Below the pieces are notes generated by a model that searched no databases, had not been told where the DNA came from, and saw only the letters and a program-made list of their open reading frames with translations. Below, piece after piece: positions 2,345 through 37,400 of a stretch of 64,000 nucleotides of DNA. The position numbers were made by a program, and so were the translations under genes. Each line of letters begins with the position of its first letter. Within the stretch, counting starts at the first letter, position 1. Origin of the DNA: Escherichia phage PP01; the sequence record NC_054930.1. One strand, 5' to 3'.

Positions 2345-2556
2345 AAAAGATTCCTTTTAATGTATCTTTTAGACCATTCTATCATATCATCATAATCTAA
2401 AAAGTATTCATCAAATTCAGCCATGCAAACAACACCTTGTGCTGTTTTTGATGTAATATAAATTATTCCAACATATCTAGAATCTTCTTCGGTATAATCA
2501 ATGTTTGCTATGAATTCATCATTAATGTCAAATGTCGAAAACTTCACAGTATGCAT
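2341..2556 (-). CDS. Hypothetical small protein (~71 aa; start taken at internal Met)
   Basis: ORF track 2341..2604; internal start MHTVKFSTFDINDEF avoids overlap with upstream ORF and shares the ...DINDEF N-terminal motif with the adjacent HNH ORF. Confidence 0.4.
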   Translation of the reverse strand: MHTVKFSTFDINDEFIANIDYTEEDSRYVGIIYITSKTAQGVVCMAEFDEYFLDYDDMIEWSKRYIKRNLL

Positions 2557-2791
2557 CCTTAATACAAGATACAGCCATATCTCGCAATGATTTAGGTGTG
2601 TCATTATCTAAAATGTTGAAGTTAAAAGATACAGCCCAGTCAGTGCAGACCGTAACCTTTTTAATACAATTATCTTCAACCTCTAGCGGTTCAAACCAAT
2701 ATTCAATAATTTCTTTATGCCCAATATCATCTTTTACTTCGCATTCAAAATGCTGACTCATCATAACATTTTTAAATTCATCAAAAGTCAT
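2528..2791 (-). CDS. Hypothetical protein, 87 aa
   Basis: ORF track; same strand as neighbours; stop overlaps the next gene's start. Confidence 0.45.
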   Translation of the reverse strand: MTFDEFKNVMMSQHFECEVKDDIGHKEIIEYWFEPLEVEDNCIKKVTVCTDWAVSFNFNILDNDTPKSLRDMAVSCIKDAYCEVFDI

Positions 2792-3807
2792 TGTGTTGCC
2801 TCTACATATAACTGATTTGCATATTGAATAAGTGCTTCGCGGTCAGAATCAGTGATGTCTGGAATTGCATTAATATATTCTTCCATCAACGTTTGAAGAG
2901 ATTGAACTTCAACTTCTTCACTATCATCTGACTCGACAGAGTTATCAATCTTTGACACAACTCGTAATGAATGCACAACTTTTTCTAGTTCAGATTCGAA
3001 CTTCGTTAGATTTTTGTCTACTTCAGTTACTATAACACGTACTGATAGATTTGTAAAATCTTTATAGTCAATTTTTCCTTTAAATGGATAATGAATTCTA
3101 CGATGCCAGGTAGTATTGTTTGGAATAAATTCCATTCGTTCTGTTTCTGTATCAAACATCCAGAACCCGCGAGGGTCATTCTCGTCACCTGCAGTTAGTG
3201 TCCATGGTGTCCCAATATATCTGACGTTTGCAGCCTCAGAAATAGTATGGAAGTGACCAGACCACACTTCTTTATAAGTCTTAAGGAAATCAGGTTCAAG
3301 ACCGTGAGATTTCATTCCTTTATAAAAATAAAATCCATTCAGTTCCCAGTGACCAACACAAAAAGAAGCAGATGAAGTTTTGATGTGTTCAAGAATTTCA
3401 CCAGTATTTTCTTCGCACATCCAAGGAATTAAATCAATCAAACATCCGTCAAAATCTACTGTAGTAGGCTTATCATATACTTTAACATTAGGATATTTAG
3501 CCAAAAGCTCAGTAGAAGCATTTGGAGTTAAAGTATTTTTAAAGTGCATATCATGGTTTCCTACAACAGTATGTAGGGTAATACCAGCATCATCAAGCAT
3601 TTGAACTATTTCACGAGCGAACTCCATAGTTTTATGCGTGATTGCTTTTCGCACATCAAAAATATCGCCGTATTGAATCCATGTAGTAATTCCGTTTTTC
3701 TTAGAATATTCTATTGCTTGTTTAATTCCATCCAACTGAATGGATTGAACCCACTCATCATCGGCTTTAACACCTAAATGCCAATCACCTAAATTTAAAA
3801 TTTTCAT
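2788..3807 (-). CDS. 47: Recombination nuclease subunit gp47 (Mre11-like metallophosphoesterase)
   Basis: 339 aa, same length as T4 gp47; phosphoesterase motifs GDWHLG, GDIFD, GNHD, GHWE, GHFH. Confidence 0.9.
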   Translation of the reverse strand: MKILNLGDWHLGVKADDEWVQSIQLDGIKQAIEYSKKNGITTWIQYGDIFDVRKAITHKTMEFAREIVQMLDDAGITLHTVVGNHDMHFKNTLTPNASTELLAKYPNVKVYDKPTTVDFDGCLIDLIPWMCEENTGEILEHIKTSSASFCVGHWELNGFYFYKGMKSHGLEPDFLKTYKEVWSGHFHTISEAANVRYIGTPWTLTAGDENDPRGFWMFDTETERMEFIPNNTTWHRRIHYPFKGKIDYKDFTNLSVRVIVTEVDKNLTKFESELEKVVHSLRVVSKIDNSVESDDSEEVEVQSLQTLMEEYINAIPDITDSDREALIQYANQLYVEATQ

Positions 3808-30756: not shown

Positions 30757-31082
30757 TTAGAAAATAAATTTATCCAAGATTGCTCTTTAATTAAAAATGG
30801 CTCAGAATCATATGCCATTAAACTTTGGGTAATTAGTCCTTTAAAAGGCCCATCAATAAATTCCATGGTAAAATATGGAATTTTATTCATTAATCTTGCA
30901 TTAGGAGCCGTGCACAAAACTCTGCATCCTTTGAATACACCTTTTTGTAATTTGTATTGCTTAGGATAAAATTCGCTCAAGACGTTGTTATTTGCCAAAA
31001 TTTCAAAATGATTCACCAATTTATTTTTAATAGTTTTTGGCGAAAAATAAAGATATTCGAAAAGTTGCGTATCTGTCATCAT
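30753..31082 (-). CDS. Hypothetical protein, ~109 aa (start at MMTDTQ)
   Basis: ORF track 30753..31133; start moved to avoid overlap with upstream ORF. Confidence 0.45.
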
Positions 31083-31618
31083 TGCATTCCAATTACGAAA
31101 AACTGCGGACGAGTAATACCACCAATGCAACATTTACTATTGCAACAGTAATGCACAGTTTCAATATGAATATCGTAAATTTTATCCATATCAGGAGCTT
31201 TAACAGGCTCATCAATTATATACAAAATTCGTGAAAGCGATAAACCTCTGAACTTACTTCCTTTATTGCCAATAAAACTACGCACAGAATCAGTAAATAA
31301 ACGAAAACGTATATCATCATTAGAATAACGCGAAAATTCCTTTTTAATGTTATTTGCAGAAATTTTAGCGTAAGCTGAAGTGTTAGAAAGAACAATAACT
31401 GTTCCACCATCATACAGCCAATTAGCAGCAAAGTTAGTCACAGCAGTTGATTTACCAGATTGACGTCCACCATCTAGTCGAAGTGTGCAATACTGTTTGA
31501 GTAAGTCTTCAAATGGTGGGATATAATCGTTTTTACAAATTTCTTCTACTCTAGCATCAGAATGGTGTGTAAAAGCATTCATCAGGGATAGATAAGGACC
31601 AGTTAAAAATGTTCTCAT
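31079..31618 (-). CDS. P-loop NTPase-like protein, 179 aa
   Basis: Walker A-like GGRQSGKST; sits at the locus where I expect denV in T4. Confidence 0.55.
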   Translation of the reverse strand: MRTFLTGPYLSLMNAFTHHSDARVEEICKNDYIPPFEDLLKQYCTLRLDGGRQSGKSTAVTNFAANWLYDGGTVIVLSNTSAYAKISANNIKKEFSRYSNDDIRFRLFTDSVRSFIGNKGSKFRGLSLSRILYIIDEPVKAPDMDKIYDIHIETVHYCCNSKCCIGGITRPQFFVIGMQ

Positions 31619-31770
31619 TTCTTCTCTCTAAATTTGGGCCATTCCGTGGCGCATGAATTGTCCATTTCTGTATTTACCCATTACCGCACTTGGGCTCGAC
31701 CTTATTACAGGTTGGCGGGAATCCCTCACAGAACCATGAGGTCCAGCTTGTTCCCATATTTCTTATTTGC

Positions 31771-32244
31771 TTATTTGAACGATTTAACGTACTGAATAGA
31801 ACCTTTACTATTCACAAAGGCAATTTTACCATTTTTGTTATACATGGTAGCAGTACGTTGATAGCCATAAGTTTGTTTACCAGATTGATAACCAACTAAT
31901 GCAAAATTATCTTCACCCATTTTATTCTGTTTAGCGCGAATGCGTTCATGACCATGTGCCATAAGAACCTTAGCATCACCAGTTGCAATGGATCGACGAG
32001 TTTTTTCATCTTCAACTGTATTAACAAAGTCGTCAAATGAATCAAATTTAGCATGAGATTTATTATACAGTTTTCCATCTACTGCATAATTATATCCTTG
32101 TACATCCATCTCAACTTCTGTACCATCATCTAATACAGCAGTAATTTTCTGTCCTTTTTTAAATTTCAAAAGATCAGTAAAAGATTCAGCAATAATTTGA
32201 GAATTAATAGCTGCTTCAGTAATAAATTCTTGATATGTTTTCAT
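31771..32244 (-). CDS. Internal (head-packaged) protein with capsid-targeting leader, 157 aa
   Basis: N-terminal MKTYQEFITEA matches the T4 IPII/IPIII capsid-targeting sequence; located beside e like the T4 ipII/ipIII genes. Confidence 0.7.
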   Translation of the reverse strand: MKTYQEFITEAAINSQIIAESFTDLLKFKKGQKITAVLDDGTEVEMDVQGYNYAVDGKLYNKSHAKFDSFDDFVNTVEDEKTRRSIATGDAKVLMAHGHERIRAKQNKMGEDNFALVGYQSGKQTYGYQRTATMYNKNGKIAFVNSKGSIQYVKSFK

Positions 32245-37048: not shown

Positions 37049-37056
37049 TATTTATA
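37049..37056 (-). promoter_or_regulatory. Late promoter (TATAAATA)
   Basis: Plus strand tatttata, reverse complement of TATAAATA, located between the terminator hairpin and the 158-aa gene's start. Confidence 0.6.
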
Positions 37057-37062
37057 CTAAAA

Positions 37063-37086
37063 AGCCCCAACCTTTCGGTCGGGGCT
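37063..37086 (-). terminator. Rho-independent terminator hairpin (repeat copy 2), 3' of the tRNA/stable-RNA block
   Basis: agcccc...ggggct stem with a U-run on the minus transcript. Confidence 0.6.
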
Positions 37087-37094
37087 AAGCCTTG

Positions 37095-37400
37095 CGGCAA
37101 CCTTGTCGGGGTTCCACCTGCTAAGGCAAGTGTTTGTACGAAACGCCGGGATTCGAACCCGGTTATTAAGTAGTTGACGCTACTCAATATTTTTAAAAGG
37201 CCATATCTCGACCATATCCGAACGTTCCGTCAAAAACGCTACTCGGCTTATGGCAAAGATATTTCCTCGAATCGATAATTCGGTGCGCCGTTTCTGCTGT
37301 GATATAAGGGGGCATTAACAAAACATAAAGATTTATTAATGCCAGTCCTTACCCAGGGAACATCAGTCCGACGACTTACCGGTAGCGACCCGGTTTCTTG
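37095..37400 (-). ncRNA. tRNA-like stable RNA region (candidate counterpart of T4 species 1/2 RNAs)
   Basis: No protein-coding signal; T-arm-like CCGGGTTCGAATCCCGG on the minus strand (~37146-37162) without canonical acceptor pairing; lies between tRNA-Arg and a terminator. Boundaries not determined. Confidence 0.35.

Follow-up and report, generated by a model that had tools for sequence, protein, structure and literature searches.

Architecture of the locus

The 64,000-nt stretch of Escherichia phage PP01 analyzed here (NC_054930.1; hereafter the window) belongs to a T4-like (Tequatrovirus) genome. The region of interest, read on the minus strand, contains an Ip4-like internal-protein gene, a tract that encodes a structured RNA, and vs.8 (Table 1). 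The stop codon of the Ip4-like gene occupies positions 31771-31773, and the RNA starts 15 nt further on. In T4, the gene order is vs.7-vs.8-denV-ipII, with denV normally adjoining vs.8; in the window, denV is gone between vs.8 and the Ip4-like gene, an arrangement also seen in AR1 and in all T2 records. A tblastn search of the 64-kb window with T4 DenV returned no homologue (top E = 8.6 over 16 aa), in agreement with the original prediction that the window lacks a denV-like gene. The same prediction assigned a P-loop protein to the place of denV. The 179-aa ORF and its GGRQSGKST motif are present as claimed, but the protein is Vs.8, 93.6% identical to that of T4, and because T4 has vs.8 beside denV, this ORF is no denV replacement. 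The synteny is that of T4, with ip/denV genes upstream and vs.7 and vs.6 (GrcA) downstream. Both the P-loop gene and the absence of denV are thus ordinary features of the locus.

Vs.8 is matched by PHROG 1488 (phrog_1488) over residues 3-179 (E = 4.9e-80). Its Walker motifs are invariant among homologues (alignment A4), all of which start with M(R/K)(T)FLT. An AF2 model (pLDDT 80) consists of one alpha/beta domain, for which Foldseek returned weak matches to helicase, terminase and phi29 gp16 ATPase domains. A sequence search of the PDB gave no significant match, and Pfam gave only weak AAA matches, with Terminase_6N at 14.4 bits, below its cut-off of 22. The Walker A motif, RQxGK[S/T], resembles the terminase type, and phrog_2 covers residues 45-149 only (E = 1e-6). 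Assignment of Vs.8 as a terminase large subunit was rejected, as this 179-aa, single-domain protein lacks the C-terminal nuclease domain.

Table 1. Features of the ip-vs.8 interval and its flanking genes, in window coordinates.
Feature	Position	Strand	Evidence or remark
Ip4-like internal-protein gene (DUF7412), upstream of the RNA	31771..32244	-	Pfam E = 6e-96; AR1 annotation 'Ip4'
Whole structured RNA, P0 5' strand to end of P5 hairpin	31636..31755	-	comparative
Three-way-junction core	31670..31723	-	covariance model R1, 69.3 bits, E = 4e-20
P0 5' strand GGGAA	31751..31755	-	pairs with UUCCC 31717-31721
P6 5' strand CUG, candidate pseudoknot strand	31744..31746	-	3 bp with CAG 31668-31670
P0a 5' hairpin CCUCAU-GGUUCU-GUGAGG	31724..31741	-	variants in T4 and L070
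P0 3' strand UUCCC	31717..31721	-	pairs with GGGAA 31751-31755
P1 5' strand GCCA	31713..31716	-	pairs with U(G)GGU 31676-31680
P2 hairpin ACCU-GUAAUA-AGGU, GNRA-like hexaloop	31699..31712	-	covariation; RNAalifold, unguided
P3 mini-hairpin GCC-CAA-G(U)GC	31686..31695	-	middle-pair covariation
J3/1 joining strand GGUAA	31681..31685	-	invariant in A2 and A3; invariance partly imposed by the search pattern
P1 3' strand U-G-GGU, invariant bulged G at 31679	31676..31680	-	column G45 invariant, alignment A2
P6 3' strand CAG, candidate	31668..31670	-	pairs with CUG 31744-31746
P4 hairpin GAA-AUGGACAA-UUC	31655..31668	-	lineage stem variants, moderate support
P5 hairpin GCC-ACGGAAU-GGC	31638..31650	-	invariant in T4-like versions, absent elsewhere
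33-aa GTG ORF inside the RNA	31628..31729	-	frame of the T4-annotated Vs.8 N-terminal 40 aa
A-rich unstructured linker, weak Shine-Dalgarno GAGAG and vs.8 AUG (31616-31618)	31616..31635	-	sequence
vs.8, 179 aa, single-domain ASCE P-loop ATPase	31079..31618	-	Walker A GGRQSGKS, Walker B ILYIIDEP

A structured RNA in front of vs.8

Between the Ip4-like gene and vs.8, a structured RNA of ~120 nt is encoded on the vs.8 strand, and this element is almost certainly a real RNA structure under selection. Its sequence is near-invariant among T4 (about 64,810-64,938 of NC_000866), AR1 and the window, in which the R1 core match is present as a single copy. The tract had been described as less AT-rich than its surroundings, devoid of ORFs and containing self-complementary segments, so that it might hold a small RNA or regulatory structure. 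Its composition is indeed distinctive: 31619-31770 is 46% G+C, and the core at 31636-31755 reaches 52.5%, the window averaging 34.9% (sd 5.1). Just 0.2% of 120-nt segments are as G+C-rich as the element, and apart from the element itself they fall exclusively within the tRNA array or the RNA C/D region. The self-complementary segments proved to be helices with covariation support, and the idea of an RNA is now more strongly backed than when it was proposed, the tract representing a covarying, apparently pseudoknotted and widespread RNA family. The absence of an ORF does not hold strictly, as a 33-aa GTG ORF lies within the tract; its frame is not conserved, and we judge it to be a probable chance ORF.

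A check by folding and covariance had been suggested for the tract, and it was the covariance that paid off. Single-sequence folds of both strands, compared to shuffles, revealed no unusual stability (z about 0), a nil thermodynamic signal, whereas covariation was found across relatives; the evidence for the predicted structure is therefore comparative, drawn from aligned sequences, and not thermodynamic. Rfam 15 gave no family match to the tract at E <= 10 and none to the element in eight related loci at E <= 0.5. ARAGORN and the Rfam tRNA model found the nearby tRNAs, never the element itself. No promoter or terminator flanking the element was found within the window. No description of it emerged from the literature, searched for vs.8, non-coding RNAs of T4, structured RNAs of phages and sequence strings; the 10,006 candidate viral RNAs catalogued in PMC10690425 lay outside this comparison. 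The RNA family is absent from Rfam 15 and, in the searches made, is restricted to phages.

Fold and covariation

In the plan shared by the family, helix P0 closes a 5' domain that often holds an inner hairpin (P0a), and this domain is followed directly by a three-way junction of P1, P2 (GUAAnA loop) and P3. The junction contains a C-N-A linker, a 3-bp P3, an invariant GGUAA strand and a P1' strand with an invariant bulged G, many of the invariant positions having been fixed by the search patterns used in sequence collection. A 3' strand, P6, is predicted to form a pseudoknot by pairing with the P0 domain. The T4-like versions add hairpins P4 and P5, which reach toward the vs.8 ribosome-binding site.

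Covariation is concentrated in the core, where all five pairs free to vary do covary among 60 distinct sequences. Core pairs are standard in 91.6% of cases, compared to 76% after shuffling (0 of 500 shuffles reach the observed value) and 18-40% with slid partners, and up to five pair types are seen within P1, at the closing pair of P2 and at the middle pair of P3. Among the 60 distinct sequences, pairing is 98-100% at the inner three positions of P1, which show 3-5 standard pair types apiece. The P2 closing pair alternates between A-U and G-C, with one variant reading ACCA-GUAA-UGGU; the P3 middle pair is C-G in 41 sequences, U-A in 15, G-C in two, A-U in one and unpaired in one. In a compact 78-nt family (for example L041, 3080-3170), pairing is 95.3%, compared to 24-42% with slid partners, and P0, P6, P0a and P1 each contain two to three doubly changed pairs. 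RNAalifold, unguided, recovers P1, P2, P6 and P0a. Only the vs.8 strand is compatible with the G.U pairs.

Helix P0 displays compensatory variants in relatives (GGGAG/CUCCC, AAAGG/CCUUU, AAAGA/UCUUU, AAAGC/GCUUU and others); complementarity is perfect in 49 of the 64 sequences, with 13.3 expected, and the helix comprises 22 distinct pair types. In P0a, the U.G pair of the window is U-A in T4, and locus L070 carries a double change (CCUUAU/AUAAGG); elsewhere, the equivalent hairpin covaries and is capped by a GNRA or GACG loop. P6 spans 4-8 bp and covaries in other families (alignment A7). A family-wide longest-helix test was only marginal; P6 rests on within-family covariation, and the pseudoknot is best regarded as a candidate, well supported in one family and weakly so in the subfamily of the window. 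The P4 stem differs by lineage (GAA/UUC, GGU/ACC, UGGAU/AUCCA), and its AUGGAY loop motif is conserved in T4-like versions only. P5 shows zero variation, so covariation is uninformative about it either way.

Two alternative pairings were discarded: a CCC/GGG register of P1 with a long joining strand, since the register with the invariant bulged G fits all families, and the alternative P3 pairings from RNAalifold, which would produce mispairs wherever the middle position of P3 is G or A. In the T2 element, the invariant P2 G is replaced by U. A likeness may exist to the 3' end of 16S rRNA (GUAACAAGGU) and to the GUAAUA loop of 23S H44; these resemblances are weakened by the variability of the fifth loop base.

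Distribution and genomic context

The same core occurs in rV5-like phages, in phages of ~45 kb, in a ~360-kb jumbo phage and in metagenomic contigs; zero copies were found in 185,579 bacterial and archaeal species genomes and in 5,426 E. coli genomes. In every T4-like locus examined with enough downstream sequence, down to 37% protein identity, the RNA lies 5' of vs.8, the gene upstream of it alternating between denV and ip genes. The distance from RNA to vs.8 is a few hundred nucleotides, rather than direct, in loci L020 and L037. The element is located ~5.4 kb from the tRNA cluster in T4-like phages, and its conservation far exceeds that of the flanking genes.

Outside T4-like phages, the element usually sits within tRNA gene arrays, on the same strand as the tRNAs, and some copies are accompanied by their own promoter or terminator. 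Two sigma-70-like promoters bracket the RNA in L067, and a terminator-like hairpin lies 3' of it in L047 and L048. The RNA-carrying non-T4 phages have no vs.8 homologues, and the proteins neighboring the RNA in rV5-like phages have neither a P-loop nor an informative Pfam match.

Proposed function and alternative readings

Wherever it is transcribed, the element would work as an RNA. The invariant junction is the predicted binding site for a conserved partner, be it a small ligand or a protein of host or phage, and the covarying helices would only scaffold it. In T4-like phages, the RNA would form the leader of vs.8 within the early ip-vs.8 transcript, and in the rV5-like, ~45-kb and jumbo phages it would be a free-standing small RNA within tRNA operons. 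The likeliest mechanism would be that of a stable small RNA serving in trans as a decoy or sponge, and action in trans as a factor-binding small RNA is the reading we tentatively prefer, conceding that it may well prove wrong. In favor of a free-standing RNA are its siting in tRNA arrays (in L047 right behind a tRNA), the lack of a following ORF in several families, the L067 promoters, the terminator-like site of L048, the L019 duplication described below, and a G+C content matched only by the tRNA and RNA C/D genes of the window. Classical labelling of small RNAs in T4 is reported to have shown only tRNAs and RNA C/D, which disfavors an abundant, stable element RNA in that phage.

In T4-like phages, the RNA may be functionally coupled to the Vs.8 ATPase, perhaps by forming a ribonucleoprotein with it or by being loaded or remodelled by it. 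This link is favored by the consistent 5' siting and by joint damage in T2, in which vs.8 carries two 2-nt deletions beside the altered element; the T2 case is a lone anecdote, since BYEP02 keeps the RNA intact despite a disrupted vs.8. A Vs.8 ribonucleoprotein cannot be general, as non-T4 carriers of the RNA lack vs.8 homologues. The fuller proposal, a new phage-specific RNA class whose junction binds and neutralizes, or senses, a conserved host factor (e.g., a component of immunity or translation) and which forms with Vs.8 a two-part T-even module, is speculative and, in our view, rather unlikely to hold as a whole.

A cis-acting leader, riboswitch-like or protein-binding, in which a metabolite or protein (e.g., Vs.8) bound at the junction would set the translation or stability of the vs.8 mRNA, and copies in other phages would regulate their own downstream gene, is possible, if doubtful. 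It fits equally well with the strict vs.8 adjacency and with hairpins that reach the ribosome-binding site: the RNA is 5' of vs.8 in all T4-like loci examined, whichever gene is upstream, and the T4-like-specific P4 and P5 finish 18-30 nt ahead of the weak Shine-Dalgarno. The combination of an invariant junction, covarying helices and a putative pseudoknot is the design of known aptamers; in ~17 of 31 lineages, a short frame starting at the AUG of the P4 loop is either fused to vs.8 or terminates in an AUGA overlap; and the terminator-like hairpins of L047 and L048 follow the RNA. Against a leader, inspection turned up no competing pairing by which the ribosome-binding site could be masked or an antiterminator formed. 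A promoter separates the RNA from the next gene in L067 and FV3, several families have only tRNAs or no ORF downstream, an ip-like gene splits the RNA from vs.8 in L020, and the tandem duplication in L019 covers the RNA alone.

Considerably less probable is a self-cleaving ribozyme or an RNase recognition module that cuts polycistronic transcripts, which would free tRNA 3' ends in arrays and set the 5' end of the vs.8 mRNA in T4-like phages. The strand order P0-P6-hairpin-P0'-domain-P6' corresponds to an HDV-like nested topology, HDV-like 'theta' ribozymes are documented next to phage tRNAs (PMC10879173), the RNA follows a tRNA closely in L047 (3-4 nt) and L038 (about 20 nt), and the invariant nucleotides are grouped at the junction as in hammerhead-type cores. 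However, Rfam ribozyme models gave no match even at E <= 10, the P1'-P6' linker is variable (0-7 nt) with no conserved C, and the P3/L3-equivalent hairpin is dispensable, being missing in the ~46-kb phage family. Moreover, the most conserved part of the element is the counterpart of HDV's variable P4, and a cleavage site is not inferable. An HDV-like ribozyme is disfavored: the topology is alike, but the defining features are missing.

A protein-coding tract, either an N-terminal extension of Vs.8 or a conserved upstream micro-ORF, is very unlikely. Annotated Vs.8 lengths include such an extension (219 aa in T4, 195 aa in AR1), the largest protein cluster (P0001, 1051 members) is called in the 195-aa form, and an MDxxCAxEWP frame is seen in most lineages. 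The coding reading was nevertheless rejected on account of frame inconsistency among lineages. The T4 and AR1 extensions use different frames of the same nucleotides; an in-frame TAG breaks the extension in the window, and the T4 frame reaches vs.8 only via an insertion of 8-9 nt and loss of the TAG. Indels in the tract are not multiples of three, three lineages are shifted in frame with the nucleotides kept, and four have no AUG. Substitutions are compensatory in helices rather than biased to third codon positions, and the core is present in phages with neither vs.8 nor an ORF. Finally, a non-functional spacer or denV-deletion scar, suggested by the absence of denV at exactly this junction, has next to no chance of being correct, because T4 carries both denV and the element, which starts at the base after the denV stop codon, and the element is kept in unrelated phages beyond the conservation of its flanking genes.

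The reference record of T4, among the best-annotated genomes, reads a covarying, probably pseudoknotted RNA as protein, and the finding would correct the vs.8 gene model in a great many phage records, with homologues in about 1,000. To the T-even phages it would contribute a third type of RNA gene other than tRNAs, and it would define an RNA family kept by unrelated virulent phages in tRNA operons. Retention in that setting hints at a general role in the phage-host relationship, for instance as a decoy, as a sensor or in RNA processing. The P-loop and denV points are of interest solely because they correct the first reading.

Comparison with known systems

The pRNA of phi29 is also a three-way-junction phage RNA, and the element lies beside a gene for a small ATPase. 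Terminase ATPase domains and the N-domain of phi29 gp16 are among the closest structural neighbors of this ATPase, at a weak TM of about 0.5. There is no sequence or Rfam similarity between the two RNAs. The pRNA gene is not adjacent to gp16, and T4 packages its DNA with gp17 and gp16 and no RNA. The parallel is an analogy only. The antitoxin-like pseudo-ToxI and abiF RNA decoys are likewise small structured RNAs of virulent phages; they have bacterial originals, whereas the element has no counterpart in the 185,579 species genomes. Locus L041 has an Rfam-recognized abiF RNA about 470 nt away from its copy of the element.

Theta ribozymes, too, are small RNAs with nested pseudoknots located in phage tRNA arrays. 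Their helix strands follow each other as in the element, but helix lengths differ, and the element has neither the catalytic-C linker nor the P3/L3/P1.1 signature. The 3-bp P3 of theta contrasts with a hairpin of 4-6 bp, with a GNRA or GACG loop, that may be absent from the element altogether. With riboswitch aptamers and structured leaders, such as three-way-junction aptamers and the T4 gene 32 pseudoknot operator, the element shares a junction, covarying helices and a candidate pseudoknot, and a conserved, covarying domain of aptamer type is present. In T4-like phages, it also lies directly 5' of a gene, and only there is it part of a 5' UTR; on inspection it has no recognizable expression platform, and it has no Rfam match. 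RNA C and RNA D of T4 (rnaC, rnaD) are unrelated to the element in sequence and structure, R1 finding nothing in the RNA C/D region (rnaC at about 37150-37290), and the T4-like element, unlike them, fronts a protein gene away from the tRNA cluster. They are, as is the element, small, structured, G+C-rich RNAs encoded by phages; they are transcribed with or beside tRNA genes, a setting that the element shares in non-T4 phages.

A structured RNA upstream of vs.8

The tract between the Ip4-like gene and vs.8 of phage PP01 carries a ~120-nt element that is essentially certain to be a selected RNA structure. The ~135 nt separating the upstream stop codon from the vs.8 AUG are almost invariant among T4, AR1, BYEP02 and the window, and conservation begins exactly past the stop codon of the preceding gene, be it denV (T4) or ip4 (the window). 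Existing annotations translate part of this sequence: it becomes codons 1–40 of Vs.8 (219 aa) in the T4 reference record, and 16 extra codons of a 195-aa Vs.8 in AR1 (AP011113). The two extensions read the same nucleotides in different frames, the window has an in-frame TAG in its extension frame, T4 carries an insertion of 8–9 nt relative to the window, the extension frame shifts in other lineages with nucleotides unchanged, and all Vs.8 homologues align starting at M(R/K)(T)FLT. On these grounds, we consider the tract non-coding. The annotated T4 and AR1 starts are probably over-extended and wrong, because they use different frames of a structured RNA upstream of the conserved MRTFLT. A coding reading was rejected, as the frame is not conserved while the nucleotides are; a reading of the tract as a ‘scar’ was also rejected.

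Positions of the RNA element, its surroundings and related features
Feature	Record or locus	Position (strand)
vs.8	Window	31079..31618 (-)
Tract	Window	31619-31770
RNA element	Window	31636-31755 (-)
Match to covariance model R1	Window	31670-31723 (-)
P4-loop frame	Window	31616-31665 (-)
Ip4-like gene (DUF7412)	Window	31771..32244 (-)
RNA C/D homologue	Window	37050-37300 (-)
rnaC probe	Window	37218-37239
Vs.8 codons 1–40, T4	NC_000866; L003	64793-64912; 4294-4413
vs.8 pseudogene, T2	PV648364 (L088)	2396-3036
Split vs.8, BYEP02	OR757454 (L002)	2200-2500
rRNA-like stretch	IMGVR_UViG_3300042010_000030 (L047)	3349-3400 (+)
abiF RNA	IMGVR_UViG_3300045135_002002 (L041)	3624-3655 (-)

Core structure of the RNA element

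The core alignment (A2) supports a three-way junction composed of P1, P2, a C-N-A linker, P3, a GGUAA strand (J3/1) and the P1 3′ strand. P1 has 4–5 bp and an invariant bulged G in its 3′ strand; P2, stacked on P1 with no linker, reads N-CCU-[GUAAnA]-AGG-N′; P3 consists of G-Y-C, a triloop and G-(N)-R-C. The patterns used to collect the sequences account in part for how invariant P2, J3/1 and some of P3 are. Among 60 distinct sequences aligned to a covariance model of the core (R1), standard pairs occupy 91.6% of cells, against 76% after column shuffling (0/500 shuffles reach the observed value) and 18–40% with slid partners. Covariation with 0–1 exceptions is seen at the inner three pairs of P1, at the pair that closes P2 and at the middle pair of P3 (C-G 41, U-A 15, G-C 2, A-U 1), and G.U pairs arise only if the RNA is in the vs.8 sense. 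One divergent copy has ACCA-GUAA-UGGU in place of P2, which suggests that the P2 hexaloop is GNRA-like. The window contains a single R1 match (69.3 bits). The self-complementary segments singled out in the original prediction, with folding and covariance analysis across relatives as the check, thus form covarying pairs, and its small RNA or regulatory structure is borne out in a more interesting form than proposed.

Outer helices and hairpins

P0 pairs the five nucleotides directly 5′ of P1 with a segment 12–50 nt upstream. It is perfectly complementary in 49 of 64 unique sequences (13.3 expected with the 3′ strand shuffled), through 22 distinct complementary pair types, among them GGGAA/UUCCC in the window, and elsewhere GGGAG/CUCCC, AAAGG/CCUUU, AAAGA/UCUUU, GAGUG/CACUC, GCAA/UUGC and GGAAC/GUUCC. 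P0 usually encloses a covarying hairpin, P0a, often with a GNRA or GACG loop. The 5′ segment of P6 starts 1–4 nt past the P0 5′ strand and its partner lies just 3′ of P1, so that P6 crosses P0 as a pseudoknot. In a compact 78-nt family, the six helices together are 95.3% paired, versus 24–42% with slid partners, with 2–3 doubly changed pairs each in P0, P6, P0a and P1; unguided RNAalifold recovers P6, P0a, P1 and P2. P6 therefore appears well supported in some families and is tentative in the window, since a crude longest-helix test across all families was marginal and P6 of the T4 subfamily is only CUG/CAG. T4-like versions have two further hairpins, P4 (loop AUGGAY) and P5 (GCC-AnGGAAY-GGC), the latter invariant; both are compatible with the data but covary little. 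The position of each part in the window was verified on the sequence.

Within the P4 loop (AUGGAC) an AUG begins a frame of 16 codons, and its UGA overlaps the vs.8 AUG (AUGA). The frame continues in phase into vs.8 in 10 of 31 lineages; the two may be translationally coupled.

The vs.8 gene and the absence of denV

The window is a Tequatrovirus (T4-like) genome that keeps the T4 gene order vs, vs.1, regB, vs.3-vs.6 (GrcA), vs.7, vs.8, internal-protein genes, e, nudE, with the vs.8 region on the minus strand. The original prediction placed a P-loop protein where denV is expected; this was a misreading, as the ORF corresponds to vs.8, an ordinary T4 gene that lies beside denV in T4 (vs.8-denV-ipII-ipIII-e), by its 93.6% identity to T4 Vs.8 (tblastn) and its match to PHROG 1488 (E = 5e-80). 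Homologues occur in 1009 phage records (27 protein clusters), only in T4-like phages of enterobacteria, with invariant GGRQSGK[S/T] and IIDEP motifs. Pfam gave only sub-threshold matches (AAA_14, AAA_30, Terminase_6N), and a PDB sequence search no significant one. An AlphaFold model (pLDDT 80, pTM 0.82) shows a single RecA-like/ASCE domain, whose best Foldseek matches are weak (TM about 0.5): helicase domain 1, RecD, the P74-26 terminase ATPase and the phi29 gp16 N-domain. Motifs, model and matches together point to a putative small terminase/helicase-like ATPase.

What had been observed, namely the ORF, the missing denV and a tract richer in G+C than its surroundings, is confirmed. The Ip4-like gene directly adjoins vs.8, and T4 DenV has no tblastn match in the 64-kb window. 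This denV-less arrangement is common to the window, AR1 and all T2 records; BYEP02 has denV one gene further upstream, and denV is found in 1119 phage records. T2 is known from classical genetics to lack v-gene function, so natural denV absence is already known and unremarkable, and the facts behind the P-loop reading are ordinary.

Distribution and genomic context

Distant blastn matches to the central ~45 nt lie in intergenic DNA of rV5-like Vequintaviruses (FV3, PDX), of the 45-kb phage Ivi and of T4 relatives of the Moon, Karam and Winkler types. Scanning IMG/VR and metagenomes for the core pattern extended this to ~46-kb, 75–97-kb and ~360-kb (jumbo) contigs and to a group of contigs of saline or marine origin. 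None of 185,579 bacterial and archaeal species (one genome each) has a match to the pattern, and blastn with the 113-nt element gave none among 5,426 complete E. coli genomes. Rfam 15 gave no hit in the window at E <= 10, nor over the element in eight related loci at E <= 0.5. A literature search found no description of the element; its reach did not extend to a published catalogue (PMC10690425) of 10,006 candidates for structured RNAs in viruses, so the element may be listed there as an unnamed candidate.

The RNA lies 5′ of vs.8 in every T4-like locus with enough downstream sequence fetched, down to 37% Vs.8 identity. Most abut directly; L020 has an ip-like gene inserted between the two and L037 a longer spacer. 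Phage PEi20 (L019) has two RNA copies in tandem. Element-bearing phages outside the T4-like group lack vs.8, and their RNA is on the same strand as tRNA arrays: 3–4 nt past tRNA-Ser in L047, about 20 nt past the tRNA-Glu of a jumbo contig, and 250–350 nt before the arrays of ~46-kb contigs. Two sigma-70-like promoters (11/12 matches with extended -10, and 10/12) bracket the L067 copy, a terminator-like site lies about 50 nt downstream in L048, and a terminator-like hairpin follows the RNA in L047 by eye, where the scanner made no call; no promoter or terminator flanks the RNA in the window. Only the tRNA array and the RNA C/D region equal it in G+C content (52.5% versus 34.9% for the window).

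Several neighboring features were also noted. The homologue of the T4 RNA C/D region, the only non-tRNA segment as G+C-rich as the element, contains the published rnaC probe, followed by a tRNA-like T-arm (GGGTTCGAATCCCGG) and a terminator hairpin. In ~46-kb contigs (L010, L014, L021, L026, L057), copies of a ~20-nt motif, GTGCYNTTWYCGTTGTGR, bracket the RNA about 40 nt before it and about 110 nt after it. The motif, which turns up again between adjacent non-coding units, may serve as a promoter specific to the phage or as a processing signal. These contigs and the jumbo-phage copies share a conserved GAAAGCAAA leader before P0. In rV5-like L067/L059/L056 and L004, the motif YAGAGGGCTTGAWAGTGC is present on either side of the RNA; the next gene, with its own promoter, specifies a small protein whose N-terminus carries an AT-hook-like KKRRRRGRP motif. 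In L047, the 52 nt directly after tRNA-Pro (GAAGGUGGGCUUAGAAGCAGCCAUCCUUUAAAG...) align with the GTPase-associated centre of the large-subunit rRNA model (22–27 bits, E = 6e-5 to 3e-4), with an exact H43 loop; they have the appearance of a phage-borne mimic of the rRNA domain that binds L11/L10, within a tRNA array. In L041, an Rfam abiF RNA (RF03085; 45.4 bits, gathering score 37) immediately follows tRNA-Asn, with the element copy about 470 nt downstream; it may be an antitoxin-like decoy carried by the phage.

Possible roles of the RNA

We tentatively favor an RNA that would act as such, binding a conserved partner via its invariant junction, because copies stand free in tRNA operons, because the RNA has been duplicated in tandem by itself and because its G+C signature is that typical of stable RNA. 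A cis-acting leader or riboswitch-like role, to which the strict linkage to vs.8 points, is somewhat less probable. All laboratory T2 records (the tabulated one and the identical LC348380, MH751506, AP018813 and NC_054931) have a vs.8 pseudogene with two 2-nt deletions and, in a P2 base pair of the RNA that is invariant elsewhere, a G-to-U change; as both are altered, RNA and vs.8 might share a dispensable function, a weak hint because vs.8 is split in BYEP02 yet the RNA is intact. The BYEP02 split, a 77-nt tandem duplication across the Walker A region, may be real or may reflect an assembly error. Less likely still is that the element serves as a ribozyme or in processing, to which its HDV-like strand topology and its position after tRNAs lend some weight; the features that define HDV ribozymes are absent.
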